Notes: a model not told the origin generated them from the sequence alone. 52,827 nt of DNA from an uncultured Muribaculaceae bacterium (GCA_964587855.1 CAZPLT010000004.1:1-52827); one strand, 5' to 3'. Positions 1,804-51,070 are shown, counted from the stretch's first letter. A program made the numbers and translations.

Positions 1804-3792
1804 ATGAAAAACCAATTTTTTGGATATTTTGCAGCTGTTTTGGGTACAATTTTAGTTGCTCCAGTCCATGCTGATCCAATCGCTGGATATGGACAGGTAA
1901 CACCTGTGACAAGCACTGCATCTACTGCTCAGTCCCCACGTGCGACGTCCACGCAACGTAGTCGTAAATCTGCTGAAAAAAATAAATCCAATGTTAATAA
2001 TGCTGTTGTAGCAAGAAGTGTTTCTTCAAGAAGTACCACCGCTTCTCGTTCTACTGCGCAAGCATCTAAAAACGTGGTTTCTCGTAGTAGTGGCAGTACT
2101 GCTGCTGCATCATCTCGTGCAACAAGTCGTGCCGTACGCTCGCGTGCCGCAACTATTGGTGCTACTGGTTCTACAGCCAGGGTTTCAATTTCTAGTGCAG
2201 CAGGAACCCGAGTTAGTGTAAGCGGTACGTCTTCTACATTGGCCAGTAAATTATATACTGGTACTTACTCGAACATTATTGATCCAACAACTGGTTTGAT
2301 TTCAGCCGATGCTTATAGCAATTGCGTGGAATCTTACTATACATGTATGGATGAAATTTGTACTGCACGTAATCCGGGACAACGCCGTTGTGCATGTGCA
2401 GGCCGTGTCAAAACATTTGCAAACGTAGAATCTCAATTACAAACCGCAAAAGAAGATTTATTAAAAGTTTCTGGGCAATTATCTTTGTTAATTTCAACCA
2501 AGGGTAAAGATGTAACAGATGCATTTACTTTGACAGAAGCAGAAAAAGTTTTGAATTGTGTTTCTTGGCGCGATGCCAAGACAGCAGGCACAGAATCAGA
2601 TTGGTGTGAAAGTCATACATTGCTGGCTGGTACCACTAGCTGCAGCAGTTATGCTGGTCCACCTGATTTTGTATCAGACTATTGCTCTAGCGAAGATTTT
2701 GTTTTGGGTGGCTCTGACTGGATGGATGTATTGAATGGTTCTGATTCCGATATATTATCAGGATTGGAAACTTATGCAGATACGATTAACGAAGTTAATG
2801 TTATAACCGCGGATGACTCGGACAGTTTGTGGTCTTCGTATATGAATGTTAGTGATATAGTTGGTGAATTAGATGGTACGGGAACAATAACAGATCTTTC
2901 GTCAGATACATTGGCCACAATGTGGGGATATGACTTGTTTGCATATGCTCATAATAATGTATGTAACCGAGTTTTGAATTCATGCTTTAATGGAATTTAT
3001 GAAGCATGCGGAAGTCATGATGGAACAACTGGCCCATATAATTATAATAATACTATAACCATAGATAACGACAGTTCGGATTTGACCTTTGTTGAAGCAA
3101 GTGCATCAACAACTACAAGTACTGCAACTTGTTTTGGTTATTCTTCGACCAGCGGCGATCCTTATTCAACATTACGTCGTCCAATTGCTAATTCTCGTCG
3201 CAGCATATTACAAAAATATGCGCTGGATGCTAATGCTGATTGCGATACTTATGGGGAAAAGTTAAAAACCCAGGCGACAAATATGGCGTATCAAAAAATT
3301 GCCGCTACACAATATCTTCAGAAAAAACGTTTAGAGTTTGCACAAGAAGAAGAGGTTGCAATCGCAACAGAATTGGCAGGGGCTAAAGAATATTATCGTA
3401 ATTGTGTAAATGAAGTTTATGATTGCTATGATCAACAAACCAGAACGAATCCAACATGGACAGCAGCACGTATAAAGAATTATTGTGCTCAAAGCGCAGA
3501 ATCTCCAAGCTGCTATAAAACAATGATATGTGATCAGGAAGTTCAAGTACTTATTGATCTTGCAGATAACATAACGTGTAATGATACTTTAGATTGGGAT
3601 AATAATACATGTAGAAACATCGTTCTGTTATCAGAAATCCTGAATGGAACGGGTGCGGCCGCAGTAGCAACGGGTAGTGAAGTAACAGCAAACTCTGCAG
3701 GATTACGCGAATACTGTTTGCAAGAAACGCCGGGTGTATATGGCGCAGGTAGTATTCGTAATTTCGGAGTTGATTGGGGCCCAGGATTTTAA
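1804..3792 (+). CDS. secreted cysteine-rich protein, unknown family (paralogue A)
   Basis: Strong RBS and signal peptide (MKNQFFGYFAAVLGTILVAPVHA). About 150 aa of Cys-free basic Ser/Thr/Ala/Arg-rich low complexity follow. Then come C-x6-C-x4-C-x9-C-x-C, a coiled coil, an acidic Ser/Asp tract and repeated C-x6-C units. I hand-counted 22 Cys, all after about aa 170. Confidence 0.85.
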   Translation: MKNQFFGYFAAVLGTILVAPVHADPIAGYGQVTPVTSTASTAQSPRATSTQRSRKSAEKNKSNVNNAVVARSVSSRSTTASRSTAQASKNVVSRSSGSTAAASSRATSRAVRSRAATIGATGSTARVSISSAAGTRVSVSGTSSTLASKLYTGTYSNIIDPTTGLISADAYSNCVESYYTCMDEICTARNPGQRRCACAGRVKTFANVESQLQTAKEDLLKVSGQLSLLISTKGKDVTDAFTLTEAEKVLNCVSWRDAKTAGTESDWCESHTLLAGTTSCSSYAGPPDFVSDYCSSEDFVLGGSDWMDVLNGSDSDILSGLETYADTINEVNVITADDSDSLWSSYMNVSDIVGELDGTGTITDLSSDTLATMWGYDLFAYAHNNVCNRVLNSCFNGIYEACGSHDGTTGPYNYNNTITIDNDSSDLTFVEASASTTTSTATCFGYSSTSGDPYSTLRRPIANSRRSILQKYALDANADCDTYGEKLKTQATNMAYQKIAATQYLQKKRLEFAQEEEVAIATELAGAKEYYRNCVNEVYDCYDQQTRTNPTWTAARIKNYCAQSAESPSCYKTMICDQEVQVLIDLADNITCNDTLDWDNNTCRNIVLLSEILNGTGAAAVATGSEVTANSAGLREYCLQETPGVYGAGSIRNFGVDWGPGF

Positions 3793-3813
3793 TTGAAAGA
3801 TAATAAAGAGCAA

Positions 3814-6138
3814 ATGATGGGTTTTTTACATTCATATGTGAAAAAAATAATCACGCTTGGCGCGCATGTTGTTTTTGCTCTTTTTGTTTTTGAAAATGCG
3901 TATGCTGCAGAAGTTAGTAGAGCAATTCCGGGCAAGGCAAATATTGTCGCCCAACAATCTGCAACAGAAACGACCGATAATGATAATATCAAATCTATAA
4001 GTCAACGTTCTGCAACGCCAGTAGTGGCAAGAACTGCAGCAGTAGCATCAAGAACGGCAACTAGTGCTGCCCCCAGAGAATCATTGAATGAAACTGCACG
4101 CCAGGTTGGTCGTTCTTCTAGGACAGAAGCAGCCAGTTTGAATTCTTCTGCGCCAGTTCGTCGTGCTGGAATTTCATTGCGTCCAACAACGGCAGAGGTT
4201 GGCGGGCGTGCAACAATTGTTGGTACTAATATTCAAACTGGTTCTAATATGAGTTCTGAAAATCGCCGTTTAACATCACGGGCTGCAACGGTTGGTCCGT
4301 CTGGTGTGGTGTCTACATCTGCTGGCAGTGATATAGAAAGTTCGAATAATATAACAGAATCATGTATTGCACAATATACAGATTGTATGGATCAATTTTG
4401 TTCAGTTATAGATGCAAATCAAAAAAGATGTGCGTGCAGTAATCGTCTCTCTTCTTATTCAAAGGTAGCATCTGCTGTAAAAGAAGCCAATACTCAATTA
4501 AATGATGTTGCTCAACGTATTCGTTATGTTGGATTATCTGCTGATGAAATCACCGCTATTATGAGTGCAACCGAGGCAGAAGAAGCATTAGAAAGAACGA
4601 AAGACACCACAGAATCTCGTAATATGTTGGATGAAATTGAAAAGCTTATTAAATCACCAGAAACAGCAACCAGTTCCAGCAGCAGTACTTCATTGGATTT
4701 AGATATTAGTTTTGATGCATCGGCAGATCCAGCAGATATGTTTAGTTTATCTGACAGTTCCAGTGATTCATTTTCTAGTTTACGTGGAACAGATCTTTAT
4801 AATTCAGCAAAAAAAAGATGTCAATCAATATTAACCTCTTGTAAATCAAAAGGTGCTGATATGTCCCAGGTCCAGGGTCGTTATGATATAGCAATTGATA
4901 AAGATTGTATATCGTATGAAACTGGTTTGGAAAAGATGAATCAAACCCTGCGCACGAATGTACGCAGTGCAACGCAAATGTTGCAAAAAGCACGCTTGGC
5001 GGTTTTGGATAATCATAATACTTATGATGCCAAAGGTTGTGTGGGTGCTTTAGAAGACTGTATGCAAGATGATATGGTTTGTGGCAGTGATTATTCAAAA
5101 TGTTTAGATCCTACAAAACGTTATATAGATGAAAATGGCGAAGTTGTTCTGGGACAAAATATTTCCAAGATCAGGGATATGATGGAGAATTTTGATAATT
5201 CTTCTATAGATGCTACATTTATTAGCAATGCATGGAGTATGTCCAGTATTACAAACTGTGATATATCGCCAAATAATAATGGTAAATGTATTGTAAAATA
5301 TCTTTTGGGAAAAATCGGAATGACGGATTCTACCAGTTCTGGTTTATGCCGACCAGTTCTAGAAAAATGTCAAAAGCAGACATATGATAGCAATGGAAGA
5401 TATAATTCTAAAAATTCAATAGTAGTTAATTATATTCAACGTGCTATGACTAATATTCGTGCAGATCAGGAAAAAATTATTTCTGATTATGCGTCCAGTT
5501 GTATGGCAGATATTGCGACATGCTATTCTAAACAGGTTACACAGATTAACGCATGGTCATCAAATGCGAATGTGCAAAATGTTTATTCAGTGTTAAAGGG
5601 CGCATGCCGTAATGTTGCGCTGACATGCAGTTATGCTGTATTTGCTGCAGACACAGGAATTGATGGTTGCCCAACAGAACAATTAATAACCTATCCATCT
5701 GAAACCGCATCAGATTCGTTACGCCAAAGCATTTGTATAGAAAATATTTCCGATATATTCTATCAATCAATGCTGTGCCCAGATTATTCTGTATGGGTGG
5801 CCACCGCGGGAGCAATTGGCAGTCTATATAGCTCTGGAACCAATGTTTATGTTAATGAACGTTGTATTTGCCAAGATGGGTATGGCGTGGACGATGGTGA
5901 ATGTATACAGTGTCCAACAGGGTACGAATTTAATTCCGCGTGTAATTATGCTAATGAATCAGTTGGTTGCCCGATTATTGGATGCGGTTGCCCATCTACA
6001 ACACCATATTGGGATAATGAAGATGAAGAATGTGTTGCTGTGTGTCCAACGGGAATACATGTTAACCCTAATAATAATGTTTGTTGCCCTTCTTCGACTC
6101 CATCTTGGAATAGTTTAACGGAAGTTTGCGAAGAATAA
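3814..6138 (+). CDS. secreted cysteine-rich protein, unknown family (paralogue B) with EGF/furin-like Cys-repeat tail
   Basis: Same architecture and collinear motifs as 1804..3792. The frame opens at TTG 3793, right after the upstream stop. ATG 3814, preceded by AAAGAG, is the likelier start. Hydrophobic signal: HVVFALFVFENAYA. Confidence 0.85.
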   Translation: MMGFLHSYVKKIITLGAHVVFALFVFENAYAAEVSRAIPGKANIVAQQSATETTDNDNIKSISQRSATPVVARTAAVASRTATSAAPRESLNETARQVGRSSRTEAASLNSSAPVRRAGISLRPTTAEVGGRATIVGTNIQTGSNMSSENRRLTSRAATVGPSGVVSTSAGSDIESSNNITESCIAQYTDCMDQFCSVIDANQKRCACSNRLSSYSKVASAVKEANTQLNDVAQRIRYVGLSADEITAIMSATEAEEALERTKDTTESRNMLDEIEKLIKSPETATSSSSSTSLDLDISFDASADPADMFSLSDSSSDSFSSLRGTDLYNSAKKRCQSILTSCKSKGADMSQVQGRYDIAIDKDCISYETGLEKMNQTLRTNVRSATQMLQKARLAVLDNHNTYDAKGCVGALEDCMQDDMVCGSDYSKCLDPTKRYIDENGEVVLGQNISKIRDMMENFDNSSIDATFISNAWSMSSITNCDISPNNNGKCIVKYLLGKIGMTDSTSSGLCRPVLEKCQKQTYDSNGRYNSKNSIVVNYIQRAMTNIRADQEKIISDYASSCMADIATCYSKQVTQINAWSSNANVQNVYSVLKGACRNVALTCSYAVFAADTGIDGCPTEQLITYPSETASDSLRQSICIENISDIFYQSMLCPDYSVWVATAGAIGSLYSSGTNVYVNERCICQDGYGVDDGECIQCPTGYEFNSACNYANESVGCPIIGCGCPSTTPYWDNEDEECVAVCPTGIHVNPNNNVCCPSSTPSWNSLTEVCEE

Positions 6139-7746: not shown

Positions 7747-8205
7747 ATGAAAGAACAAAGCGGGCGTAGTTTAATTGAAATGTTGGGGGTCATGGCAATA
7801 GCTGGGGTTATGACAGCTGGCGCAATCAAAATGTATCAGGTTGTTCGTACCAGACAAGTTCATATGATGGCCGCAGAAAAAATGAAAACAGTTGCATTAA
7901 ATACAAAATTATTATATGCAGCGCGCAGTAACTATGCTGGAATATCTATAGATTATTTGATCAAGTCTGGGGTAATGAGCTGTGGAAAATCGCCATTGCC
8001 GGGCACAATCTTTTCATTTACAGAAAATCCTGGCAGCAAAGAATTCGCAATGGTTTTTTCAGGTTTAGATTATAAAGATTGTATATGGATGACGACACTT
8101 AAAACAGATTGGGCATCCAAGGTTAGCGTTAATGGATATTTTGAATCTGCCAGTACGTATTGCAAAGAAAACGAAAAAAACGAAGTTCAAGTTTGGGTGA
8201 AATGA
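7747..8205 (+). CDS. type IV pilin / pseudopilin-like protein (class III signal peptide)
   Basis: N-terminus MKEQSG|RSLIEMLGVMAIAGVMTAGAI has a short basic leader, Gly at -1, Glu at +5 and a hydrophobic helix. Cysteines in the C-terminal half are as in pilin disulfide loops. About 150 aa. Confidence 0.7.
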   Translation: MKEQSGRSLIEMLGVMAIAGVMTAGAIKMYQVVRTRQVHMMAAEKMKTVALNTKLLYAARSNYAGISIDYLIKSGVMSCGKSPLPGTIFSFTENPGSKEFAMVFSGLDYKDCIWMTTLKTDWASKVSVNGYFESASTYCKENEKNEVQVWVK

Positions 8206-9670: not shown

Positions 9671-10393
9671 ATGAAAAAACTCTGGTGTATTTTAGGGATA
9701 GTGTTATTTACAGGCAATCTTTATGCCTTGGATACCCCGGATTTTGAAACTTACGAGAATATTGCTATTCAACATCAACCAGAATCTTTGATTGAAACGG
9801 ATGATTTATTTCTTAATCCGCAGACCCCGACAGAAAATGTATGGCTTGTGGATGAAAATGATTTATATTCTGGGTGCCCTTTCTTTTCAACACGGGAATG
9901 TGATATTTGGAAAAGAAAACCCGCAGTAATAGAAACCATAGAATTGCCAGAACGTCATATAGAAAAAGCGTGTGATTACAAAAAAGAATTATTGAAAAGA
10001 TATCAAACATTAATGCAGGCTGCGCGTTCATGTTGTGTTTCTGGAATGGAGTATAGATTAAAACAATCTGGCGCAAGTAAAAGCTTAATTTATAAATTTA
10101 TGATAGATGATGCGAACTTTTATAGATTTGGTGATCGGTGTTTAATGATGTCAGATGAAAAATTGGAAACCAAATATCCAAACAGTGCAACCGCACAAAT
10201 GGTATCAGATGTTCGTGATACATGCTTGTGTAAACGGCGTGATTATTTCAGCGCTTTGCTTGCACCATTTGATGATTTTTCAGATGAAGAATATGAATAT
10301 TCTTATCAAGATGGATTAAAACGTGAATTAAATGCTTCTATTACAGAAGATGTGAATTTTATAAAAGAGCAATTAGAAAACTGCCCAAAATAA
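9671..10393 (+). CDS. secreted cysteine-rich hypothetical protein
   Basis: Signal peptide MKKLWCILGIVLFTGNLYA. Multiple Cys, including CC and C-x-C-K-R-R. No recognisable family. Flanked by its own terminators. Confidence 0.7.
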   Translation: MKKLWCILGIVLFTGNLYALDTPDFETYENIAIQHQPESLIETDDLFLNPQTPTENVWLVDENDLYSGCPFFSTRECDIWKRKPAVIETIELPERHIEKACDYKKELLKRYQTLMQAARSCCVSGMEYRLKQSGASKSLIYKFMIDDANFYRFGDRCLMMSDEKLETKYPNSATAQMVSDVRDTCLCKRRDYFSALLAPFDDFSDEEYEYSYQDGLKRELNASITEDVNFIKEQLENCPK

Positions 10394-11519: not shown

Positions 11520-11941
11520 TAGATACAAAAGGTGTAGAAGCGATAATTCCCCATCGTGGCGATATGAGAATGGTTGATGAAATCCGCGAGTTTAATGAAA
11601 CCAGCGGTGTCGGAATAAAACATGTGCGTAGCGATGAATTTTGGTGTGCTGGGCATTTTCCAGGGAATCCAATTATGCCGGGCGTATTACAGATAGAGGC
11701 TTTGGCACAAACCGCATGTTTTATAGTTTTTAAACAGTTAAAAACAACAGGCACAGATACTTTGGGTTATTTTACAACTATGGAAAAAATTAAGTTTTCA
11801 AATATGGTAAAACCTGGCGATACACTTGAACTGCATGTAGAAATTTTGGCAAAAAAAATGAGCATGTATAAATTCCATGGAATCGCATTGGTTAGTGGCA
11901 AAAAAGTGTCCGAGGCTACGTTTACAGCAATTATGAGTTAA
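11516..11941 (+). CDS. fabZ: 3-hydroxyacyl-ACP dehydratase FabZ
   Basis: HFPGNPIMPGVLQIEALAQ active-site block. ATGA overlap with lpxD. Confidence 0.93.
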   Translation: MIDTKGVEAIIPHRGDMRMVDEIREFNETSGVGIKHVRSDEFWCAGHFPGNPIMPGVLQIEALAQTACFIVFKQLKTTGTDTLGYFTTMEKIKFSNMVKPGDTLELHVEILAKKMSMYKFHGIALVSGKKVSEATFTAIMS

Positions 11942-12287
11942 CAAAGCGGGCATAGCCCGCTTTTTTTATATATTTATATAATTGGTATGGGGTCCATATA
12001 AAAGGTGCACGAATACCCAGTACTTGTTTAACAAAAGAAACACATGTAAAACAAGATTTGTAATTAAATGTGGAAGATATAAAGACATTTGTAAATACCC
12101 ATCCGTTTCGCTTTAAAATCATTATATCGCGGTTTTTAAGTGGTATAAAATGTATCTTGTTTCTGGATGTAAATTGAAGCATTAAATAGCAATTATTATA
12201 TTCCAAAATAACGGCACAATGGCGAAATCTTCGGCAGAAAATTCGCGGCAGTATTTTGCTGGTATTGTTTGTAAATCCGATAAGCAT
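11931..12287 (-). CDS. hypothetical protein, possibly a permuted papain-fold (YiiX/C92-like) hydrolase
   Basis: ORF with internal ATG start MLIGFTNN. An early His (FRHCAVIL) and a later Cys (SCFTCVSFVKQVLGI) sit in the order seen in permuted NlpC/P60-type enzymes. The resemblance is weak. The C-terminus reads through the fabZ terminator. Confidence 0.35.
   Translation of the reverse strand: MLIGFTNNTSKILPRIFCRRFRHCAVILEYNNCYLMLQFTSRNKIHFIPLKNRDIMILKRNGWVFTNVFISSTFNYKSCFTCVSFVKQVLGIRAPFIWTPYQLYKYIKKAGYARFVNS
11945..11967 (+). terminator. rho-independent terminator after fabZ
   Basis: AGCGGGC-ATA-GCCCGCT followed by a 7-T run. No lpxA follows. Confidence 0.7.
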
Positions 12288-12305
12288 TTTTAATCTCGTT
12301 ATTTT

Positions 12306-12337
12306 AAGAACAAAGAGTAAATTTACTCTTTGTTCTT
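12306..12337. repeat. perfect 32-bp palindrome
   Basis: AAGAACAAAGAGTAAA|TTTACTCTTTGTTCTT lies between the two minus-strand ORFs. It could be a hairpin or an operator. Confidence 0.8.
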
Positions 12338-12343
12338 TATTAT

Positions 12344-12532
12344 TTAATTTTCTAACCATTGTTTGGCATTAGCTGCGACAGCAATTTTTTTCATAGCGTC
12401 ATGCCATAAAGCGGCTGGGGCATTTTCTGACCAAATATGCTGATTTGGTGCACGACGCATATCTCCAAAGTCTTTTAATACTGTTAATTGTTGCTCGCTT
12501 AATTTTCCAGATAAATATAAACGTGTAATCAA
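12344..12532 (-). CDS. hypothetical protein (TTG start; frame stays open a further 70 codons upstream with no start codon; possible pseudogene)
   Basis: My hand translation keeps the frame open up to 12742 without ATG, GTG or another TTG. No recognisable family. Confidence 0.3.
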   Translation of the reverse strand: MITRLYLSGKLSEQQLTVLKDFGDMRRAPNQHIWSENAPAALWHDAMKKIAVAANAKQWLEN

Positions 12533-12863
12533 AGCTTCTACATCGATAGCCTCACAAGGATAAGGATTTTTTATAATTGTTTTTCCGAAATGGACGGCCG
12601 TTTTAAACCTGTCTCTTTTTCGACAAGTTAAAAACCAAAACCATAATTGTTCTGCGTCCCTAAATTTTTTTGATGAATCAGTATCTGTGTTTGAATAAGC
12701 AGATATTTTTTTTACATAATTGTTCTTTTTTCTCTCTCCATATTACCCGGTATGATTACTGGGCACTTATTCTTATACTAAAAATGATTGAATATTATCA
12801 AATAATACAATTATATATAGATATTAATATTGGATTTCAGAGTTATTTATAAAGCTTTGATAT

Positions 12864-12888
12864 AAAAAAATTCGCCTTATCGGCGAAT
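12864..12888 (-). terminator. rho-independent terminator ending the minus-strand T4SS-linked operon
   Basis: On the minus strand: ATTCGCC-GATAA-GGCGAAT followed by TTTTTTT, about 27 nt after the stop at 12915. Confidence 0.7.
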
Positions 12889-12914
12889 CGTAAATGATAA
12901 TTTAGAAAATAGAA

Positions 12915-13625
12915 TTATTGTTCTTTCTTTGTCCCGACTCTTGAATAGTCATCAAGATAACGACCGATACTTGCATTGAATGTATTTAAACAATTTGCTA
13001 AATTCCCTTTATCAATATGTGATGCATCTTTGCATGCGGTTTCTATCCATGCTTGGTCTTTTGGATCAGTTACATAAATTCTATAGGTATTAAGTTCATT
13101 TTCTAATTGTTTACGAACTTTTGTCATACTTGACTCGTTTCTTATCAAGCTAATATTCCTTTGGACGCATTTTAATGTTTCTTGGGTTGCGCCACTTTGG
13201 GTTAAACAATTTTGAACCCCCGCAATAATTACAGATTTATCATCAGATTTAGAACTGCTGCTGGATGAATCATCTGTTGCGTTGCCACCGGCGGCTTGGA
13301 CCTTGGCGGTCAGGATAGATTTTTGCAATTGGGTTTTAAGACGCTTTACCGTTACATCCAGAAAGTCATATTGCTTTTTCATTTGCTGTGTCATAATTGT
13401 AGTTTTCAAAGCGATAATATCGTTCATCTCTTGTTTATCGGCCGGATTATATGTTTCCCCAATGTTATAAGCATGTGTAGTGCATAGTGCGACAGCTTGA
13501 TTAATAAATTCATTATTATCATTAGTACAGCCATTATCAGCAGCGCGTACCGAAACAGTCGTCAAAATGGCGAAAGTAAAAACAGAAAAGATTAAAAATA
13601 TTTTTTTCATTTTTTTACAATTCAT
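12915..13625 (-). CDS. secreted helical protein, unknown family (VirB5-sized; function unknown)
   Basis: Signal peptide (MKKIFLIFSVFTFAILTTVSVRA), coiled-coil-like stretches and a poly-Ser linker. Its start overlaps the upstream stop (TAATG). Confidence 0.75.
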   Translation of the reverse strand: MNCKKMKKIFLIFSVFTFAILTTVSVRAADNGCTNDNNEFINQAVALCTTHAYNIGETYNPADKQEMNDIIALKTTIMTQQMKKQYDFLDVTVKRLKTQLQKSILTAKVQAAGGNATDDSSSSSSKSDDKSVIIAGVQNCLTQSGATQETLKCVQRNISLIRNESSMTKVRKQLENELNTYRIYVTDPKDQAWIETACKDASHIDKGNLANCLNTFNASIGRYLDDYSRVGTKKEQ

Positions 13626-15472
13626 TATCCACCAGTATTAAACATATTTGTTTTATTTCCATTGCCGGCCCCAGGATTAATGCTAAGATCTGGGACATTG
13701 AGAGAAGGGGCTTTCAGTTGCGGTACAAAAGAAGGGGCTTTCAGTTGCGGTACAAAAGAAGGGGCTTTCAGTTGCGGTACAAACACCACTCTATTAGAAT
13801 TATTCGGGGTTACTGTTGTCGTACTGGCGTTTATATTATAATTAAGTCCTGATGCTGAATTATTGCCAGGTACAGAGAATTGTTTATCTAAATTATTTAT
13901 GTCTACATTAGAATTATTCGGGGTTACTGTTGTCGTACTGGCGTTTATATTATAATTAAGTCCTGATGCTGAATTATTGCCAGGTACAGAGAATTGTTTA
14001 TCTAAATTATTTATGTCTACACATAAACCAGAATCAGGCAAACGTCTACGTTGAGTCATTGTTCTAAGTTTACCTATTATTTCTTCATCATTAACTCGGC
14101 ACCATTTTTTTGCATCCTCGGGATCTTTTACGACATTTGGTGCATCTTGGTTAATAATTCTTTTCAGGGTTTCTACATCAATGCTGGCTTGTTTTTTACG
14201 ATTTTTAAATAATTTAGAATTATCAATTGCATCAGATGCGCAAGCAACGCGAATACCGCCACTGCTGCCAGCATCCATATACAACCAGTTTTGTTGAACT
14301 TCTTCTTGGTTATTAAGCATATTTAACAAAGTACAATGGGGTTGTTGTGATGCTACACGACGGTTACCCTGATAATCTTCATAAGCAATTTGATAATATC
14401 CACGTCTTGTAGTATTGTCCCATTCGCACCCATCTGGAAGTTTATTCTCATTATCTGGTCTGCATGTATCACACATATATTTTCCCCAAACATTACATGA
14501 ACCGTTCAGCATCATATAAATATCGGTAATATCCACCCCCAGACTTTGTGCCAGAATAAGTGCATCATATAATTCATCCAAAACATTTTCGTATGGATCA
14601 AAAAATTTATTTGCTTTATCTTTGAATGCTCTTACACGTTTTGGGCCCGTGCAATTATCACCATTAACATCACACCCAGCATAATCAAAAACATTTTGCA
14701 TTGTGTTTTTTAAATCTTTCATTGAAACTTCGGCATCTTCAACTTTGGTTAATATTTGACCACCAATTTGCTCGCGGGCTAAAACATCAGCAGATACACC
14801 AGCAGCAGCAGCATTTGCAATGGCCACATCTGGCGCAGTTGCCGCGGCCACGGCTGCTTCGGCTTGCTGTGCCGCTAATTGTTTTTGTTCTTCTAATGCT
14901 TGCTGGACAGCAGCAGCAGATTGAGCAGATTGTTCCTGCATCTGTTGTTGCATCTGTGTCATTTGTTGTTGCATTTGCTCCATCTGAGCACTGGATTGAG
15001 CACTGGCAGCTTGGGCTGCACTTGCGGCGGCGGCGGCTTGGGCTTCGTTAGCTTTTGCATTCGCACTGCTAACCATTTGTGCGGCCAATGTTTGAATCAG
15101 TTCATCGCCATATTTTTTACATGAAGAATTACTTTGTACACACCCAGTGACAATTGGGATAGCTAAATCCATGCTGGTACAACCAGCACATTTAGGTTGA
15201 GCGCAGCGTAAAATTAAAGAATTACAATTTCCAAAATCAGCTGTTGCACCCTGTTGACCAATGGGATTTTGATTCATCATATTATTCCATTGATTGTTAT
15301 TTAATGCGCCAGTATTACCAGTAAAAGCAGTACGATTTCCAGACGATCCCCCCGAGTTTTCAAATGCAGGTCCCGGTCCACCAATCGGCGAATCCGCACG
15401 CGCAAAAGGTTCTGCGCATAAAGTAAAGCACAGAGCACAAAATACAGATAAAAATCTGGTTGAAAATTTCAT
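13625..15472 (-). CDS. secreted Gln/Ala-rich coiled-coil, cysteine-rich protein with C-terminal tandem repeats, unknown family
   Basis: Signal peptide MKFSTRFLSVFCALCFTLCAEPFARA. Gly/Asn/Gln-rich region, C-x6-C-x4-C-x2-C module and a long Q/A-rich tract (QQQMTQMQQQMQEQ). Then a Cys-rich globular part, 2x38-aa and 3x9-aa perfect repeats. ATG 15472 is preferred over 15499. Confidence 0.8.
   Translation of the reverse strand: MKFSTRFLSVFCALCFTLCAEPFARADSPIGGPGPAFENSGGSSGNRTAFTGNTGALNNNQWNNMMNQNPIGQQGATADFGNCNSLILRCAQPKCAGCTSMDLAIPIVTGCVQSNSSCKKYGDELIQTLAAQMVSSANAKANEAQAAAAASAAQAASAQSSAQMEQMQQQMTQMQQQMQEQSAQSAAAVQQALEEQKQLAAQQAEAAVAAATAPDVAIANAAAAGVSADVLAREQIGGQILTKVEDAEVSMKDLKNTMQNVFDYAGCDVNGDNCTGPKRVRAFKDKANKFFDPYENVLDELYDALILAQSLGVDITDIYMMLNGSCNVWGKYMCDTCRPDNENKLPDGCEWDNTTRRGYYQIAYEDYQGNRRVASQQPHCTLLNMLNNQEEVQQNWLYMDAGSSGGIRVACASDAIDNSKLFKNRKKQASIDVETLKRIINQDAPNVVKDPEDAKKWCRVNDEEIIGKLRTMTQRRRLPDSGLCVDINNLDKQFSVPGNNSASGLNYNINASTTTVTPNNSNVDINNLDKQFSVPGNNSASGLNYNINASTTTVTPNNSNRVVFVPQLKAPSFVPQLKAPSFVPQLKAPSLNVPDLSINPGAGNGNKTNMFNTGG
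13703..13783. repeat. 3 x 27-bp perfect tandem repeat (codes FVPQLKAPS x3)
   Basis: AGAAGGGGCTTTCAGTTGCGGTACAAA occurs three times head to tail, in frame. Confidence 0.95.
13793..14020. repeat. 2 x 114-bp perfect tandem repeat (codes a 38-aa unit VDINNLDKQFSVPGNNSASGLNYNINASTTTVTPNNSN)
   Basis: 13793-13906 is identical to 13907-14020 by direct reading, in frame. Confidence 0.95.
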
Positions 15473-15546
15473 ATTCTCTCTATGGATAAAGTTTATCATA
15501 AAATATAAAAAAATGAAAGAAAAAATAGTGGTTATTACAATAAAAT

Positions 15547-15571
15547 AAAATCCGCATAACTGCGGATTTTA
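15547..15571 (-). terminator. terminator/attenuator-like hairpin straight after virB10-like stop
   Basis: AAAATCCGCA-GTTA-TGCGGATTTT overlaps the TAA and is followed by ATTTTATT on the minus strand. It could be partial termination within the operon. Confidence 0.5.
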
Positions 15572-17905
15572 TTTTATTGGTGGAAAGCAATCGCCACCGG
15601 AACTGGGGCAACAATTAAATCCTTGTTCTCCCATGTCTGTATAAACTTCGCCGGAACAACATCCGTTTACATCTGGTGCATTTCCGTCTTCGCAAGTTAA
15701 TACTTGATTATTTTCTTCGGCTGGTGCTTTTTCTTTTGCAAATGGATTTTTTATACTTCCATCAGTGTTATATTCCAATCCCAAAACTTGTTCATTATAC
15801 TCTTTCGATCCCTTGGTTAATGCTTGGCCACCAGTACCAACAATTCCGGTCTTTTGTTGATTAGTATATACTGCAGCTTGTTTTGCATTGTTGATTGCCT
15901 GGTATTGTGTTGATTGGCAATACGCTACAACAGTGCGATAATCATAACCATCATCTGCGATGGATTGTGCCGTAACACCCGAAGCCAATTGCCCATTTTG
16001 TCCGCAGTATTTTTGAATATTAAATCCACGAACCTGCCCAATCCACGACGGATCTTTATAATTAACCCAAGGGCCATCAGAAGTTTCGGATGTGCTAATT
16101 GGCGGTGCTTTATGTACAGCATACTCAGATGGTTTTAATTTACAATTTTCCACTCCATTAACTTTGTCACAGAAATTAACAACTAAATCTTTTGGAGAAT
16201 AAACAGTTATACGTGTTCCAGCCGCTATAGAAAATGGAGGAACCGTATTATCCAGCATATCAACCATTAATTTTTGGGCAACTTTATTCCATGTATTAAT
16301 AATTTCATTTTTTGCAAGTTCCGAAGAACGAACCTGACCGCTTTGTGTAACGGTATTATTATCCCAATCAATTTGATTAACAAATTTATCCGATATTGGT
16401 GCAATTAAATTAACTGCTGCGGGTACGACTGCGGTTATCATTGGCATAATAAATTGTTCCATGTAATCGGTGCTTCCGTGTCCGGGAACCCCAACACGAC
16501 CCTGGCTGTCGCCGGCGAACGGTTCATTACCAGCAAAACTGAATTCCACACCATCTGGACGAACAAAGCGATACCATTTAATTTGCATACGCCCAATTGC
16601 CTTATACGGTCCGGGCATTTCGCCAGTTAAATATCCCAACATTAATGTTCCGGTTGGAACAATAATTGTGCGTCCATTATCGGAATAAACATGTCTGTCT
16701 ACGGTTGCTTGGACCGGTAACATTGATTGACGTTCAATTTTTGCATCTGCACGAATTTCATTAACAATTGTTGCGGGTATTGGTTTATATTGGCGTAATA
16801 CAAAAGAACGATCATAAGGGTCAGTGGATACGAATGCATCGCCTGCCTCGGCAGAAGAAGGAATTAAATTACTGGTTGGTTTATATGCAAACGCCGGATT
16901 AATTTCAGACAGACGTTTTGCGCCCCCCGCTGCGTTTGGTAATTCTGCGGCAGCACCAGCTTTTTGATGTGCCATATTTTTTTCGCGAGTTACAGCAGGA
17001 TTTGATAATACCGGCAATTTTGCGCCAGATGATATAAACCCGATACGATCAAAATCAGAACCTATTTTTTTGCTGGGATTTTTAAGATCTGTAATAAATC
17101 CAGTATCTGGATTGTATTCACCAATCGGTTGTGTGCAATTAGTATCAGAAAAAGGATGAAATAAATAGTGTCCAGCTTGGGGGCGAATCCAACCAATTTG
17201 TTTTCCATAAGTATCATATCCACCAAAAGAAAATTCATAACAACGTTCAGAATCTAGTTCGGATGTTGATTTACGTTCTTCTTTACGTTCCGGACCAACA
17301 TGATTTTTCATTGGTGGTGCAATGGTATCAACTGCTTCGGATACAGGATTTATTTCGGCTTTTTGTTCTGCAACAACTTTTGGTTCTTGTTTTACAGGTT
17401 CTGGTGGTTGAACAAATGTGGAAAGAGCAACAGGTATCTCGATTGTTTTTGCCATTTTTGCTTCGGCGCTGGCAGAATAATATTCGATCAAAATTTTAAT
17501 ACCTGTTTGTGTTAAATCAGTTCTGGGTATCCATACTAATTCTGCAGTACATGGAACCTCAGGAGAGATTTCACCCATATTAGTACATGTAGTATTTATG
17601 CTTAACCCGCTAATCGTTTCTGATAATTTTATACTGGGAATTATGGCAGAAGTATTAGGTGTAATTTTAATAGACTGAATAAGTTTTTCCCCTATTTTTG
17701 AATCTAGCCATTCTATTTCAGCCGGATCAGTTGTAATCTCTAGTGCGATTGTTGGGGCTTTTACGGTTTTGTCTTTTTTATTATGACCCAATAATAAAAC
17801 TAATAATACAATCACTACCAAGAATGCGGAAAATAAAACAATCCACAAAACATGCCGTGGCACGTTTTTTTTAATTTCGGAAATAGTTGTTGTTATCGTA
17901 GCCAA
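15569..17905 (-). CDS. virB10: VirB10/TrbI-family T4SS core protein, enlarged (778 aa) with N-proximal extra domain and Cys-rich C-terminal extension
   Basis: N-terminal TM (VLWIVLFSAFLVVIVLLVLLL) and a Pro-rich linker (VQPPEPVKQEPKV). The TrbI/VirB10 barrel region runs from IPATIVNEIRAD to RITVYSPKDLVVNF, via VPTGTLMLGY, WYRFVRPDGVEF and GDSQGRVGVPGH. The only available start is TTG. Confidence 0.8.
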   Translation of the reverse strand: MATITTTISEIKKNVPRHVLWIVLFSAFLVVIVLLVLLLGHNKKDKTVKAPTIALEITTDPAEIEWLDSKIGEKLIQSIKITPNTSAIIPSIKLSETISGLSINTTCTNMGEISPEVPCTAELVWIPRTDLTQTGIKILIEYYSASAEAKMAKTIEIPVALSTFVQPPEPVKQEPKVVAEQKAEINPVSEAVDTIAPPMKNHVGPERKEERKSTSELDSERCYEFSFGGYDTYGKQIGWIRPQAGHYLFHPFSDTNCTQPIGEYNPDTGFITDLKNPSKKIGSDFDRIGFISSGAKLPVLSNPAVTREKNMAHQKAGAAAELPNAAGGAKRLSEINPAFAYKPTSNLIPSSAEAGDAFVSTDPYDRSFVLRQYKPIPATIVNEIRADAKIERQSMLPVQATVDRHVYSDNGRTIIVPTGTLMLGYLTGEMPGPYKAIGRMQIKWYRFVRPDGVEFSFAGNEPFAGDSQGRVGVPGHGSTDYMEQFIMPMITAVVPAAVNLIAPISDKFVNQIDWDNNTVTQSGQVRSSELAKNEIINTWNKVAQKLMVDMLDNTVPPFSIAAGTRITVYSPKDLVVNFCDKVNGVENCKLKPSEYAVHKAPPISTSETSDGPWVNYKDPSWIGQVRGFNIQKYCGQNGQLASGVTAQSIADDGYDYRTVVAYCQSTQYQAINNAKQAAVYTNQQKTGIVGTGGQALTKGSKEYNEQVLGLEYNTDGSIKNPFAKEKAPAEENNQVLTCEDGNAPDVNGCCSGEVYTDMGEQGFNCCPSSGGDCFPPIK

Positions 17906-17953
17906 TTTTTAACTATGGGTTGAATTTATTTTTATCCCATATCCCTTTATCAT

Positions 17954-19426
17954 TTATTGCAACCGAACTACGTTACAGCTGGTACCTTGGAATTTGGTCA
18001 AACTGTTGCATAATTTTTCTGCAGTTTCCATATCTGCTATTGGACCAACACGCAAACGATAAAGTCTGGCATTAGCACCCGTTGCACCTAAATCACCGAC
18101 GCCTGCTTCATCGACTGCGAAATAAACCATACCTTTATACGGGGTCAAAAGTCCCTGGCCATCTTCACCACTGAATTTGGACAATAATTTGGTCCAATAA
18201 TCATTAAGTGCTTTGACCGAAGTATCGGATTTAAGTTCCACAGCAATGCCTGCTTGGTTAGATGATATAACCGGTATATCACTTTGTGGTAAGAACGCAC
18301 CAGTTGTGTTACGTGTTGTTGGTAACATGTTAACACCACTTGCTCCACCAGAAGTATCACTGGTTTGCATCGTCATTGGTATTTGGAATCCATTTGAATT
18401 GATGTTTTGTTTGTACGTAACTCCATAATCCATAGACTCATTCCCATAACCTACGTTTTGTAAGGATTGCGTTGATTGTATGCTTTGCATTACATTAGAT
18501 TCTGCCAAAGCCATAACGCTGGAAGTATCTGCAATCAAGAAAGGTTTAGAGCGACGTTTAATACAAACGATTCGTTGACCACTGCGCAGAACCATATCAC
18601 CGACTGCCTCTACAATCAAAAGACGTCCATTTTCACCATCAGTGCGGAAACCGACTGGCGATTCGCCACCTTCAACCAAAATAGAAACAACTGGCCGCTG
18701 GGTCATGGCGATAACTTTGTCGCCAAAGTCAATATAAGTAAAGATTCTGTCGCGCCATACGCGCTCTGGCGCAATTACAAAATCATCTGGATTTGGAACG
18801 AAAATATCCAAATCAAAACGGAATTCAGATGGATCAATTTTCATTGTTTTTATCCAACCATAATCTTCACCATCAACACCAACAGTAGAAGTTTTTGTTT
18901 TGCTGGGGAATATAGAATTCATACCAGATGTTTGACCATTACTGGAAGAAGTTGTTGCGCTGGATAAAGTAGAACGACCATCTAGGACGATATCAACCTG
19001 GGAATATGAGATTTCGCTGGAGTTAGCAGGTTCGCTGCGCAGATAGAATAAATATTTATTTCCAGATTTGCCGGTAACGATTAAATTTGTATCGCTGCCC
19101 TGATTTGTTGCAACTGGCGTCATATAAATTGTCCGACCACCTTTCTGCGGTTCAAACTGGAATAAACCATCGTTTCCGATAACACCATCTTCTATTGCTT
19201 CGCCTTCGGGCAAGTTAATCATAGTAACCATGCCATTACGTAATTTTATTGGTAATACAGTACCTGGGGCCCATGTCAATTGTGCATAGCCAGGTTTAGA
19301 ACTGCCAGTTGCCATGTTTGCTTCTGGATTATCCCATGCATCTTGAACGCCATGATCTTCAGCACTGGCAACGCCAATACAAAGAACAAAGAGCAAAGAA
19401 CAAAGAGCAAATAATTTATTTTTCAT
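17954..19426 (-). CDS. virB9: VirB9/TrbG/CagX-family T4SS core protein fused to a C-terminal SPOR domain
   Basis: Signal peptide. N-domain pattern (VTMINLPEGEAIEDGVIGN...TNLIVTGKSGNKYLFYLRS). C-domain (VIAPERVWRDRIFTYIDFG...PVVSILVEGGESPVGFR). The last 100 aa or so match the SPOR consensus (ARLYRLRVGPIADMETAEKLCNSLTKFQGTSCNVV). Confidence 0.85.
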   Translation of the reverse strand: MKNKLFALCSLLFVLCIGVASAEDHGVQDAWDNPEANMATGSSKPGYAQLTWAPGTVLPIKLRNGMVTMINLPEGEAIEDGVIGNDGLFQFEPQKGGRTIYMTPVATNQGSDTNLIVTGKSGNKYLFYLRSEPANSSEISYSQVDIVLDGRSTLSSATTSSSNGQTSGMNSIFPSKTKTSTVGVDGEDYGWIKTMKIDPSEFRFDLDIFVPNPDDFVIAPERVWRDRIFTYIDFGDKVIAMTQRPVVSILVEGGESPVGFRTDGENGRLLIVEAVGDMVLRSGQRIVCIKRRSKPFLIADTSSVMALAESNVMQSIQSTQSLQNVGYGNESMDYGVTYKQNINSNGFQIPMTMQTSDTSGGASGVNMLPTTRNTTGAFLPQSDIPVISSNQAGIAVELKSDTSVKALNDYWTKLLSKFSGEDGQGLLTPYKGMVYFAVDEAGVGDLGATGANARLYRLRVGPIADMETAEKLCNSLTKFQGTSCNVVRLQ

Positions 19427-19454
19427 ATTATATCCTTCCTAACCTAAAAATACG

Positions 19455-20117
19455 CTATTGCGCAAATTTTAGAACATTCAGTGGATCTCCATCCCCTGAT
19501 TCTATTCTGTATTCTGAGACTTGTAGTCCCAGAGGATTTTTTTGTTTTGCATTCCATTTTATTTCTGGTGCATAAGTCAAACCTATTACAATAGTAAAAT
19601 CTTTTGGCATAGTTTGTCCAGAGCTTTCTGATGTACAAAACCATCTGAATCGAACCGCAAATTTATCATTTCCGCGTGTTTCTATAACTGGGGATTGAAA
19701 TTCTACTGGACAAGAAAATGCAGGGTCTGGGGAATCATGCATAAATGCTGACCATAATTGTGTTTCGGTAAAGTTGGCATAAATCTCGCGTGAAGACCAA
19801 ATATAAACAGGACCATCAGGACTGCGCCATTTATAGCGCATAACATTGATATTTGGGATTATTTCATTACGTGCACGAATATATTCTTTGATAAAATTTT
19901 CTTTGTAATCAGTCAGGGTTTTATCATTCACAGGTAATGGTTGAATTTCAACCACTTGGGTTTCGGCGCGATGTGAATTTAAAAGAAAAATTTGAGTTTT
20001 GGTTAAAGGGAACATATTTGATACTGCAAAAACAAGGGCTAATGCAGTAGCAATAGCAGCAGCCAAAACAAAAGACATCATACGGGCAGTAAATGTATTA
20101 GGATCCAGTATAGCCAT
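19455..20117 (-). CDS. virB8: VirB8-family T4SS protein (canonical, with NPxG motif)
   Basis: Bitopic, with a short N-terminus and TM MMSFVLAAAIATALALVFAV. About 220 aa, with the hallmark NPLGLQVSEY near the C-terminus. Sits directly upstream of virB9. Confidence 0.8.
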   Translation of the reverse strand: MAILDPNTFTARMMSFVLAAAIATALALVFAVSNMFPLTKTQIFLLNSHRAETQVVEIQPLPVNDKTLTDYKENFIKEYIRARNEIIPNINVMRYKWRSPDGPVYIWSSREIYANFTETQLWSAFMHDSPDPAFSCPVEFQSPVIETRGNDKFAVRFRWFCTSESSGQTMPKDFTIVIGLTYAPEIKWNAKQKNPLGLQVSEYRIESGDGDPLNVLKFAQ

Positions 20118-37909: not shown

Positions 37910-38419
37910 ATGAAGTTTAGCAAAATTATTTTGGGATTGGGATTATTAATCTTTACCCATGGCGCATTTGCAGCACAAAAAATAGAAATTTATTATTCCC
38001 CATCTTGCCCACATTGTCATCATGCATTGGGCTTTATTGATCAAACATTAAGACCTGAATATAAAAATCTAGAAGTTGTAAAAGTTAACGTAATGGAACA
38101 ACAAAATCGTCCAAATTTTATAGAGGTTCTTAAAAAATGTAAATTTCAATCTGGTGGTGTTCCAGTCTTGGTCGTAAATGGAAAATGTTTCCAGGGTTAT
38201 GCAGAGTTTATGAATACAGACATTATGGCTGCATTGGGACCAGCAGACGCAAAAGCATCGGAAGAGCAAATCGCAACAGATAAAAAAGCAGAACCAGCTG
38301 AATTGCCTGAAGAACCAATTGTAAAACCAGATAATGGAAACTCTGTAATGTTGTATGTTTTATTTGGATTACTGATTGCAGCATTATTTGCGGTTATGTT
38401 TGTAAAAAAGAAAAAATAA
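37910..38419 (+). CDS. exported thioredoxin/glutaredoxin-fold thiol-disulfide oxidoreductase (CPHC), C-terminally membrane-anchored
   Basis: Signal peptide. CPHC active site, the same tetrad as DsbA. GGVPVLVVNG cis-Pro-type loop. C-terminal TM VMLYVLFGLLIAALFAVMFV. Confidence 0.75.
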   Translation: MKFSKIILGLGLLIFTHGAFAAQKIEIYYSPSCPHCHHALGFIDQTLRPEYKNLEVVKVNVMEQQNRPNFIEVLKKCKFQSGGVPVLVVNGKCFQGYAEFMNTDIMAALGPADAKASEEQIATDKKAEPAELPEEPIVKPDNGNSVMLYVLFGLLIAALFAVMFVKKKK

Positions 38420-46528: not shown

Positions 46529-47212
46529 ATGGATTTTCCGGCAGATTATGATACAAGAATGTTCCCGGAGACACGCTATCTTTCAATGGCGCGGATGTTT
46601 GCTATTTGGTCTGCAGTATTATTTTTTTTAATAGTAGGGCTTTCTTGGACTTTGGTTTGGACCATGCGTGCCAGTCGAACTGAACCTGTTTTATTTTCAA
46701 TATCTGATGATGGAACAACTTGGACAGCTATTATTGGTGGGGATACACGTTTAAAATATTCTGCTATGCGTGTTATGCAAGAATCAGTGGTTGTAAATTT
46801 CACACAGCTTTGGTTTAAAATTTCTAACGATGCAAAAGAAAACGAAGAAAATTGGTGCAAATGTGATCCTGCAAAATGTTGGAGTAATGAATTAGCCCCA
46901 GTGAGATGTAATATTTGTTGTGCATCTGGCGAAAGTTTATTTACCAATTTTTCAGAAGTTGTAAACAATGATTTTCGTGTACGTGCGACAGCTGGTGAAG
47001 AATGGTCAGTAATTCCAGAAACAATTCATGCAGTACCAGTTGGTGTAATTTCAGACAAGGGTGGGCTTTGGTCTTTAACTGCAAGCATTAATATGGGTGG
47101 CGGTAAAATACAAAATATAGAAGCATATGCTAAAATAACGAAATCAGAGCAAGGTTATCCTGCAACTTTGAGATATTATGTTGAAGATTTCAATGCATAT
47201 CCGGCGGAATAA
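46529..47212 (+). CDS. VirB8-like bitopic membrane protein, divergent (no NPxG)
   Basis: Cytoplasmic N-terminus, one TM (MFAIWSAVLFFLIVGLSWTLVW) and a periplasmic part of about 180 aa. C-terminal GYPATLRYYVEDF aligns with ADPATILRFRVLEV of the next gene and with KNPLGLQVSEYRIE of the canonical VirB8 at 19455..20117. Confidence 0.5.
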   Translation: MDFPADYDTRMFPETRYLSMARMFAIWSAVLFFLIVGLSWTLVWTMRASRTEPVLFSISDDGTTWTAIIGGDTRLKYSAMRVMQESVVVNFTQLWFKISNDAKENEENWCKCDPAKCWSNELAPVRCNICCASGESLFTNFSEVVNNDFRVRATAGEEWSVIPETIHAVPVGVISDKGGLWSLTASINMGGGKIQNIEAYAKITKSEQGYPATLRYYVEDFNAYPAE

Positions 47213-47862: not shown

Positions 47863-47872
47863 GGAAAAATAA

Positions 47873-50674: not shown

Positions 50675-51070
50675 TTATTTTCTTTTAAAGTAAAACTTGC
50701 ATCCATCTAAGTTTTGATACAGGGTGTCTGGTAATATAAAATAAAAACTTTCTATAACTTTTTTATCTTTTTTTATAGTCAATTTATATTCTTCGTTGTA
50801 TTTAATTTCTTTCATGTTAATAATAACATTATCAGTTTCTATCATAGAATGATTTATATTATTTATTTTACAAAATTTATCTAAAGTAAGTTTTAACACA
50901 GAATTTGTATATAACTTTTCAGCGGTATTTTCGCAATCTGTCGTAATATATCCATCATATTCAAATTTATCAAAATACCATTTCCCGCAAAATTCACATG
51001 GCTGACTTGTTTTTTTTACGCAACCAGTTAGGGCAAAAAATATCAATAATAATAAAAATAATTTTTTCAT
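50675..51070 (-). CDS. AT-rich lipoprotein co-translated with the lysozyme gene
   Basis: MKKLFLLLLIFFALTG|C lipobox. Its start overlaps the lysozyme stop (ATGA). Confidence 0.6.
   Translation of the reverse strand: MKKLFLLLLIFFALTGCVKKTSQPCEFCGKWYFDKFEYDGYITTDCENTAEKLYTNSVLKLTLDKFCKINNINHSMIETDNVIINMKEIKYNEEYKLTIKKDKKVIESFYFILPDTLYQNLDGCKFYFKRK

Follow-up and report, generated by a model that had tools for sequence, protein, structure and literature searches.

A conserved pair of genes for cysteine-rich secreted proteins adjoins type IV secretion modules in some genomes of the gut order Rs-D84

Expanded type IV secretion systems (T4SSs) have system-specific accessory subunits, such as Cag3, CagM, and CagT in Helicobacter pylori and DotC, DotD, DotF, and DotK in Legionella, and the subunits of pertussis toxin, which are exported by Sec, are encoded beside the ptl genes. 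Systems of the rvh type are marked by duplicated VirB4, VirB8, and VirB9 and by expanded VirB6 paralogues. In Rickettsia, virB8b, virB9b, virB10, virB11, and virD4 form one cluster, no VirB5 has been found, and VirB5 has been ascribed a role in the periplasm, at the pilus tip, or in contact with the host (PMC2653234). The locus described here lies in a contig of 52,827 nucleotides (nt) deposited as an uncultured Muribaculaceae bacterium (GCA_964587855.1, CAZPLT010000004.1:1-52827), referred to in its entirety as the window, and comprises five open reading frames (ORFs) on the minus strand at positions 12915-20117, namely virB8, virB9, virB10, and two genes for secreted proteins, here called unkA and unkB, followed by a terminator. 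An initial annotation made from the sequence interpreted these genes as a single operon in which the two secreted proteins follow virB10 instead of virB11 and virD4. The comparisons presented here suggest that unkA-unkB is a self-contained transcription unit encoding a constant pair of proteins, which adjoins T4SS genes in two distant groups of the gut order Rs-D84 and may, as a tentative proposal, work together with the T4SS of these bacteria.

The organization of the locus is as first annotated with respect to its parts: the NPLG motif of VirB8, the close linkage of virB8 to virB9 (gap of 28 nt) and of virB9 to virB10 (48 nt), the two secreted ORFs of 615 and 236 amino acids (aa), the TAATG overlap between them, and the strong terminator closing the unit, with its 8-bp stem and T-run, are all found where they were placed. 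Transcription running from virB10 into unkA is not upheld, on account of a terminator-like hairpin after virB10 and a separate promoter before unkA. The hairpin has a 19-bp stem with an energy of −24.5 kcal/mol (z = −9.6) and is also found in the close relatives L001 and L010 (L-numbers denote loci from related genomes, read over ±10 kb from each match); L023 and L106 have other terminator-like hairpins at this position, and the hairpin is weak in L002, L003, and L018. On the 5′ side of unkA in the window, CTTTCA is followed by an 18-nt spacer, the extended −10 element TATGATAAACT, and then AGAGAGAATATG. When the 100 nt upstream of unkA were collected from 84 non-redundant relatives representing all genomic contexts and including the lineage of the window, the extended −10 motif TGnTAnnnT was present in 84/84, compared with a mean of about 8/84 in shuffled controls; the motif ends 11-25 nt before the ATG, and 14-19 nt before it in 82 of the 84. 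These motifs suggest two tandem transcription units rather than one operon. Because unkA has its own promoter in all 84 contexts and terminators lie on both sides of the pair in the window, unkA-unkB would appear to be self-contained, with a near-consensus sigma-70 extended −10 promoter.

The two genes are constant partners. Directly 3′ of unkA lies unkB in 86 of 100 unkA loci, and in another 10, belonging to several separate lineages, the two are fused into one ORF of 670-802 aa; the remaining four loci are interrupted by contig ends. An exhaustive search of 1.84 billion proteins with a hidden Markov model yielded 259 representatives of the UnkB family, the best 150 of which are single full-length matches at E ≤ 1e-46 and hence clear family members, and fused UnkA-UnkB forms of 700-780 aa occur among the representatives. 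UnkA has more than 1,100 homologues, which are 45-50% identical across the order and in which numerous Cys, Gly, Pro, and aromatic positions are invariant. The repeated fusion and the obligate adjacency argue that UnkA and UnkB form a 1:1 complex.

The surroundings of the pair are variable, the immediate neighbours of unkA falling into about 20 different arrangements in 80 further loci. Comparisons based on VirB10, UnkA, and VirB4 sampled 80 loci each. Among the 80 species-level virB10 genomes the pair lies behind virB10 only in close relatives (L001-L003, L008/L016, L010/L011, L017-L020, and L023); one gene separates virB10 from the pair in L106, and the block is inverted in L102. The adjacency of virB10 and the pair does not hold as a general arrangement, as most of the 80 genomes have two small genes, c6-c5, 200-300 nt after virB10 and lack the pair in the 10-kb flank. 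In the window unkA-unkB sits between virB10 and c6-c5, which come after unkB. The reading frame of c6 is conserved there to about position 12721, yet no ATG, GTG, or TTG occurs before 12532, which suggests that c6 uses a non-canonical start codon or has begun to decay. The order virB8-virB9-virB10 is kept in all 80 sampled genomes wherever it can be read, and virB8 was found in 86 related loci, each time upstream of virB9. The initial annotation was right about the position of the pair after virB10; the virB8-virB9-virB10 trio stands alone throughout the clade, and therefore no virB11 or virD4 has been replaced at this locus.

A second junction with T4SS genes is found in L146, L148, and L163, where the pair follows directly, on the same strand, after a module composed of virB3, virB4, and a gene for a 206-aa secreted protein (p206). 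The pair is accordingly docked behind virB8-virB9-virB10 in one clade and behind virB3-virB4-p206 in another, and in a neighbour-joining tree of UnkA the virB10-linked and virB4-linked groups are far apart. About 0.1 adjacencies to the ends of T4SS clusters would be expected by chance, in a rough estimate that takes ~20 contexts and ~900 genes per genome, and two are observed. The link of the pair to a T4SS suggested at the outset is made plausible by this second, unrelated lineage, although in most genomes the pair is unlinked. The coordinates of the features of the locus are collected in Table 1.

Table 1. Positions and properties of the features of the virB8-virB9-virB10 and unkA-unkB locus, in window coordinates.
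Feature	Coordinates	Strand	Properties
virB8	19455..20117	minus	220 aa; N-terminal transmembrane helix, periplasmic domain, NPLG in '...KQKNPLGLQV'
virB9	17954..19426	minus	490 aa; CagX family PF03524, signal peptide, C-terminal SPOR domain
virB10	15569..17905	minus	778 aa; TrbI family; long N- and C-terminal extensions, Cys-rich tail
Terminator-like hairpin	15538..15579	minus	19-bp stem; overlaps virB10 stop codon (15569-15571), then U-run
unkA promoter and leader	15473..15519	minus	−35-like CTTTCA 15519-15514; extended −10 TATGATAAACT 15500-15490; Shine-Dalgarno AGAGAGAA
unkA	13625..15472	minus	615-aa secreted protein
Perfect tandem repeats, 3′ part of unkA	13703..14021	minus	27 bp x 3 (13703-13783), 114 bp x 2 (13793-14021)
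unkB	12915..13625	minus	236-aa secreted protein; TAATG overlap with unkA
Intrinsic terminator closing unkA-unkB	12860..12889	minus	8-bp stem, 4 GC pairs, then TTTTTAT; terminator at 12889-12869
c6 and c5	11931..12721	minus	small cytoplasmic genes; virB10-c6-c5 is the commonest order in the clade; no Pfam family

UnkA and UnkB have features that fit exported, disulfide-bonded, and partly surface-exposed proteins, as far as can be judged from their sequences. The ORF of unkA encodes 624 aa from the ATG at 15499 and 615 aa from the ATG at 15472; the signal peptide is present in the 615-aa form, which is also the form called in the protein database (P0121). Of the 19 Cys of UnkA, 16 belong to the mature protein. 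From the N-terminus onward, a conserved motif is followed by a helical domain rich in Cys, a Q/A-rich coiled coil (residues 126-225 are 60% Q+A), an alpha/beta domain containing Cys, and a variable repeat tail. The AlphaFold2 (AF2) model of UnkA has a mean predicted local distance difference test score (pLDDT) of 62.6, with a confident Cys-rich helical domain at residues 80-145, long helices over the Q/A region, a confident helical and beta domain at about 230-420, and a disordered tail from residue 496. The tandem repeats in the tail are 100% matches according to Tandem Repeats Finder and encode FVPQLKAPS three times and a 38-aa unit twice; their identity suggests that an exposed tail has expanded recently and varies in length. 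The length of this tail differs among relatives, and it acts as the linker in UnkA-UnkB fusions. UnkB has a signal peptide and six mature Cys; its conserved N-terminal Cys/His motif is followed by a long helix and, after a linker rich in S and D, by a four-helix bundle at the C-terminus. In its model (mean pLDDT 70.5) the long helix spans residues 64-111 and a confident four-helix bundle with four conserved Cys spans 130-236, and the most conserved residues (C33, C48, H51, N54, N60, and others) are N-terminal, in a region that is largely poorly modelled. Elsewhere in the window, a secreted thioredoxin/glutaredoxin-like CPHC protein is encoded at 37910-38419 and could be a periplasmic disulfide oxidoreductase for Cys-rich exported proteins.

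The search for known relatives of these proteins gave uniformly negative results. Scans of UnkA, UnkB, p206, c5, and c6 against Pfam, NCBIfam, and PHROGs identified no real family, the sole hits being compositional coiled-coil matches (TFIIA, tape-measure protein); the absence of Pfam and NCBIfam matches and the presence of signal peptides agree with the original description of both as secreted unknown proteins and mark them as Sec-type secreted proteins of no known family. Profiles of the UnkA and UnkB families found nothing among PDB sequences except a marginal match of UnkB to DUF1311 (E = 0.13 to PDB 3gi7). Assignment of the UnkB C-terminus to the DUF1311/LprI four-helix domain was rejected, with no Pfam hit and no such domain among the 50 Foldseek matches listed. 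Foldseek comparisons of the two AF2 models with the PDB gave no match at E ≤ 0.001 (134 matches for UnkB), only generic helical bundles, and VirB5, TraC, and CagL are absent from the 50 matches listed for each model, both models being only moderately confident. A superposition on the three-helix bundle and globular appendage of TraC or VirB5 was not obtained for either model among these matches. Membership of UnkA or UnkB in the VirB5/TrbJ family was likewise rejected, in the absence of Pfam or NCBIfam hits at E ≤ 0.1 and of any PDB sequence match, as was a placement of UnkB at the VirB5 gene position between virB4 and virB6, as p206 follows virB4 in 79 of 80 loci and UnkB always follows UnkA. 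The proposal that the 236-aa protein is an analogue of VirB5, TraC, or CagL consequently fails on sequence, on fold (including the Foldseek comparison with these three proteins that had been suggested), and on gene position. No match to the pair was found by tblastn among 72,556 plasmids or in a scan of viral contigs, and the pair was therefore rejected as plasmid or phage cargo. The UnkA and UnkB families are new and restricted to the Rs-D84 clade.

The T4SS proteins themselves are divergent. VirB8 scores 54.9 bits with PF04335 over residues 11-206 (cut-off 23.2), VirB9 matches the CagX family PF03524 at 76.3 bits against 34.2 and lies in the expected position between virB8 and virB10, and VirB10 matches the TrbI family PF03743 over residues 370-575 at 65.5 bits against 35 and has a transmembrane segment in its translation; each is a member of its family by these measures. 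The corresponding NCBIfam equivalog cut-offs are missed by all three, with 14.2 against 188 for VirB8, 51.8 against 217.7 for VirB9 (TIGR02781), and 59.8 against 220 for VirB10 (NF038091). Matches of the three proteins to solved homologues are weak: VirB9 matches TrwF of R388 (PDB 7o3j) at 4e-5, VirB10 matches structures of CagY (8e-7), VirB10, and ComB10 (PDB 2bhv), and a separate match, to TrwG, is at 0.08. The term canonical, given initially to VirB8, is too strong for these proteins, which exceed the Pfam thresholds but fall short of the equivalog models and match solved structures weakly. VirB9 has, in addition to CagX, a SPOR domain of the peptidoglycan-binding type (PF05036, 22.3 bits), and VirB10 continues for ~200 aa beyond the TrbI domain to a CC-rich end, with 14 Cys in total; a SPOR tail on VirB9 and long extensions on VirB10 are unusual for core T4SS subunits. 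The statement that the window contains no T4SS ATPase, VirB6, VirB2, or VirB3 was borne out by Pfam and NCBIfam scans of the ORFs of the window that have no obvious housekeeping identity; the other ORFs are housekeeping genes or unknowns, and none has a T4SS signature.

Further T4SS genes are found in related genomes. The virB3-virB4-p206 module (for example L146, 6552-9890) is conserved across Rs-D84 (L174-L253), and its products match PF05101 (VirB3, 8.9e-8) and PF03135 (VirB4, 1.1e-11). Relatives of VirB4 were found at 168 genome loci, and the 80 that were compared are 74-79% identical to the query, save for three close relatives. The VirB4 ATPase that a complete T4SS calls for is accordingly encoded in the relatives; the genome to which the window belongs is known from one contig. 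Assemblies are shared between the lists, with at least 27 common to unkA and VirB10 and at least 32 common to unkA and VirB4. The protein p206 holds the VirB5 gene position, right after virB4, and the neighbours past it vary; it is highly conserved, with 594 homologues, matches within Enterousia, and an invariant HEDxH motif of the HExxH type, which suggests a zinc peptidase, and it has no known family and no PDB relative. A relationship between p206 and UnkB was rejected, as hhalign found none. Upstream of virB3 there is no virB2, just rpmJ, and a Walker-motif scan of ~4.5 Mb of sampled loci detected no VirB11 or VirD4, only DnaX, FtsK, ABC, ClpX-like, and RecF-like proteins. The Rs-D84 clade carries at least three conserved modules, virB3-virB4-p206, virB8-virB9-virB10 (with c6-c5), and unkA-unkB.

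The assignment to this clade follows from the protein relatives, which are found solely in uncultured Alphaproteobacteria of the gut, rumen, and termites, many of them named Candidatus Enterousia, and which include a closed metagenome-assembled genome (MAG) of 958,618 bp. The host is a member of Rs-D84, an order of uncultured gut bacteria that includes Ca. Enterousia and its relatives and has genomes < 1 Mb, and it is placed outside Rickettsiales sensu stricto, so that the Rickettsiales framing of the initial annotation is not retained. Enterousia has been assigned to order Rs-D84, with genomes < 1 Mb that lack most biosynthetic pathways, and a partner-dependent lifestyle has been proposed (PMC12306168, 2025). 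The T4SS goes unmentioned in that genomic study (PMC12306168), and no description of a scattered Rs-D84 T4SS was found in the literature searched. Despite their alphaproteobacterial genes, several contigs (among L002, L003, L018, L103, and L181) bear the record title 'uncultured Muribaculaceae' or 'Bacteroides fragilis', and one protein is named under Lachnospiraceae, probably as a result of wrong binning or labelling of public MAGs.

The genes that most often accompany the pair belong to a different neighbourhood. In the window, skp-c18-lpxD-fabZ is convergent with c5-c6-unkB-unkA. With respect to lpxD-fabZ, the position of the pair is immediately downstream in L100-L103, L107, and L111 and upstream in L113 and L114, and in L014, L139, L156, and L171 the two are divergently oriented. 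The gene c18 (9671-10393 in the window), which encodes a Cys-rich secreted protein of no known family, is conserved clade-wide between skp/ompH and lpxD; it adjoins the pair in many Enterousia loci and is three genes away in the window. Five sites in the window match the strict extended −10 motif, and four of them precede secreted or lipoprotein-like genes of unknown function; the site before c18 (9654) and that before a gene for a 662-aa protein (1767) share the unkA-type promoter CTTTCA/TRTGATAnAAT. The 662-aa protein (1804-3792) and the 781-aa protein encoded next to it (3793-6138) are large secreted proteins of no known family.

Other genes of the window are recorded here for completeness. 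A 152-aa protein encoded at 7747-8205, between dnaX and an OmpA-like gene, has a prepilin-type N-terminal methylation motif (PF07963, slightly sub-threshold), and larger pilin-like paralogues, c11 (~435 aa, two copies), occur upstream of unkA in many Enterousia genomes. Downstream of bamA, at 46529-48739, three consecutive genes encode membrane or secreted proteins of 227, 216, and 288 aa with no Pfam or NCBIfam match; the first of these, a membrane protein (46529-47212), was considered as a second VirB8 and rejected, as it has no detectable similarity to VirB8. At 51067-52827 the contig breaks off within a prophage or phage junction, marked by matches to a phage lysozyme (PF00959, 3e-29) and to a portal/head-tail connector of phage type (PF12236, 2e-82).

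The interpretation preferred here, which is advanced tentatively and as possible rather than probable, is that the product of unkA-unkB is an abundant disulfide-bonded heterodimer of the periplasm or cell surface that works with the scattered T4SS of the clade. From the first transcription unit would come VirB8, at the inner membrane, and VirB9/VirB10, the outer-membrane core, of a divergent T4SS whose genes are scattered over the chromosome and which is conserved throughout the genome-reduced gut order Rs-D84. The second would be an autonomous module with its own promoter and terminator, whose products would be exported by Sec, oxidized in the periplasm at their 16 and 6 mature cysteines, and assembled 1:1 into a heterodimer. 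This heterodimer could serve the T4SS as an accessory present in abundance in the periplasm or at the surface, perhaps as an adhesin or a tip or stalk-like element on which the variable repeat tail of UnkA is exposed, and it could take on a role for which the sampled sequence yielded no homologue of VirB2, VirB5, or VirB7. Strong conservation in a lineage thought to be partner-dependent (74-79% identity for VirB4, 45-50% for UnkA) is counted in favour of this proposal, as are the two different junctions with T4SS genes and the assemblies shared between the unkA list and those of VirB10 and VirB4. A wider version, held with somewhat greater reserve, is that UnkA-UnkB, possibly together with p206, supplies what a highly derived T4SS lacks outside the cell or in the periplasm, with these proteins as functional stand-ins for components of the VirB2, VirB5, or VirB7 type, and that this T4SS is the core device for partner attachment or resource uptake in the gut. 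Several points weigh against the association with the T4SS. Most genomes have no T4SS gene near the pair, whose most persistent neighbours over deep lineages are lpxD-fabZ and the Cys-rich c18, rather than vir genes, and the linkage to virB10 may be a single inherited arrangement, leaving only two independent events. No T4SS component resembles UnkA or UnkB in sequence or fold, and with models of only moderate confidence (62.6 and 70.5) a fold match could have been missed; VirB11, VirD4, VirB6, and VirB2 were not found within ~4.5 Mb of sampled flanks, and a strong constitutive promoter is unlike that expected of core T4SS subunits.

Part of this evidence is accommodated by a different account, in which UnkA and UnkB build, in the periplasm or outer membrane, an abundant structural complex cross-linked by disulfides, belonging to the skp-c18-lpxD-fabZ biogenesis neighbourhood without a specific tie to the T4SS, and in which the position after virB10 reflects inherited synteny or genome shuffling. 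The linkage to lpxD-fabZ in many loci, the c18 neighbour in many Enterousia loci, and the absence of vir linkage in most genomes would be expected, as would the occurrence of the same strong promoter type before c18 and before the secreted unknown gene, and high expression would suit a structural envelope protein. Nevertheless, two separate junctions with T4SS modules are improbable by chance, the lpxD-fabZ linkage is equally explicable as slowly decaying ancestral synteny, and Pfam, NCBIfam, and PDB searches gave no similarity to any known envelope protein, chlamydial cysteine-rich proteins, Lpp, and Tol/Pal included; this account is considered somewhat less probable than the preferred one, and it deserves serious attention. 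It is considerably less probable that UnkA-UnkB is a Sec-dependent T4SS cargo or released adhesin, folded with disulfides in the periplasm and released through the VirB9/VirB10 channel in the manner of pertussis toxin and Ptl. Signal peptides, an even number of conserved cysteines, the variable repeat-bearing tail, the position beside T4SS modules in two lineages, and a separate strong promoter, as for cargo made in excess, are consistent with such a role, but the core of UnkA is unusually conserved for a host-facing effector, with many invariant residues, no toxin or enzyme domain was detected by Pfam, NCBIfam, or Foldseek searches, and obligate 1:1 pairing with repeated fusion fits a structural unit at least equally. 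The version of the initial annotation, a single virB8-virB10-unkA-unkB operon with the 236-aa protein as a cryptic minor pilin of the VirB5/TraC type, is very improbable: the size, signal peptide, and helical content of UnkB resemble those of VirB5, and the weak hairpin in L002, L003, and L018 would permit read-through there, whereas the presence of an unkA promoter everywhere, the terminator after virB10 in the window, the lack of any VirB5 hit in Pfam, a Foldseek listing whose 50 best matches include neither TraC nor VirB5 nor CagL, a PDB profile search that returned just DUF1311 (E = 0.13), and the occupation by p206 of the canonical VirB5 position after virB4 all stand against it.

Bacteria of the order Rs-D84 are widespread in the gut and are suspected to live off other cells. 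The clade keeps a strongly conserved scattered T4SS (virB3-virB4-p206 and virB8-virB9-virB10) together with an always-paired Cys-rich secreted module. If the proposed association is correct, and UnkA-UnkB is part of the T4SS, it would represent a new class of T4SS accessory and offer a handle on contact with the partner; if the pair is not part of the T4SS, it is still a conserved envelope complex, probably abundant and with no recognised fold, of an uncultured lineage.

Comparison with described systems places the locus close to several of them without identity to any. Like the Helicobacter ComB system, it has a stand-alone B8-B9-B10 cluster apart from a B3-B4 cluster, and VirB10 scores 47.2 bits against the ComB10 model, well under the cut-off of 300; nothing like UnkA or UnkB occurs in ComB, however, and no evidence for DNA uptake was found here. 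The pair shares with pertussis toxin and Ptl the location of Sec-exported, disulfide-bonded proteins (here predicted) beside T4SS genes, but a toxin fold, AB5 or otherwise, is lacking, and the pair has a promoter of its own and mostly lies away from vir genes. UnkB and p206 resemble VirB5, TraC, and CagL in their size of ~200-240 aa, signal peptide, and location beside T4SS genes, and UnkB also in being mostly helical. In contrast, UnkB is cysteine-rich, never occurs without the 600-aa UnkA, to which it is sometimes fused, is expressed from its own promoter usually away from vir genes, and has no sequence or fold similarity to these proteins.

The rvh T4SS is likewise chromosomal, is found in a reduced alphaproteobacterial genome in scattered clusters, one of which starts with virB8-virB9-virB10, and lacks a recognisable VirB5 (PMC2653234). 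A cluster of the rvh type, virB8-virB9-virB10-virB11-virD4, was not found: behind virB10 lie the terminator and unkA in the window, and most relatives have c6-c5 there. In rvh, virB10 is followed by virB11-virD4 and virB4 by VirB6 paralogues, whereas here virB10 is followed by c6-c5 or unkA-unkB and virB4 by p206, and the host order is Rs-D84. The accessory subunits of the Cag and Dot systems differ from UnkA-UnkB in being encoded inside the T4SS island, whereas the pair is autonomous, mobile within the genome, and known here from its genes. UnkA and UnkB nonetheless resemble these accessories, which decorate the VirB9/VirB10 core, as lineage-restricted secreted proteins with no homologues in other T4SSs, and they do so in a clade whose VirB9, with its SPOR tail, and VirB10, with 778 aa, are themselves enlarged.

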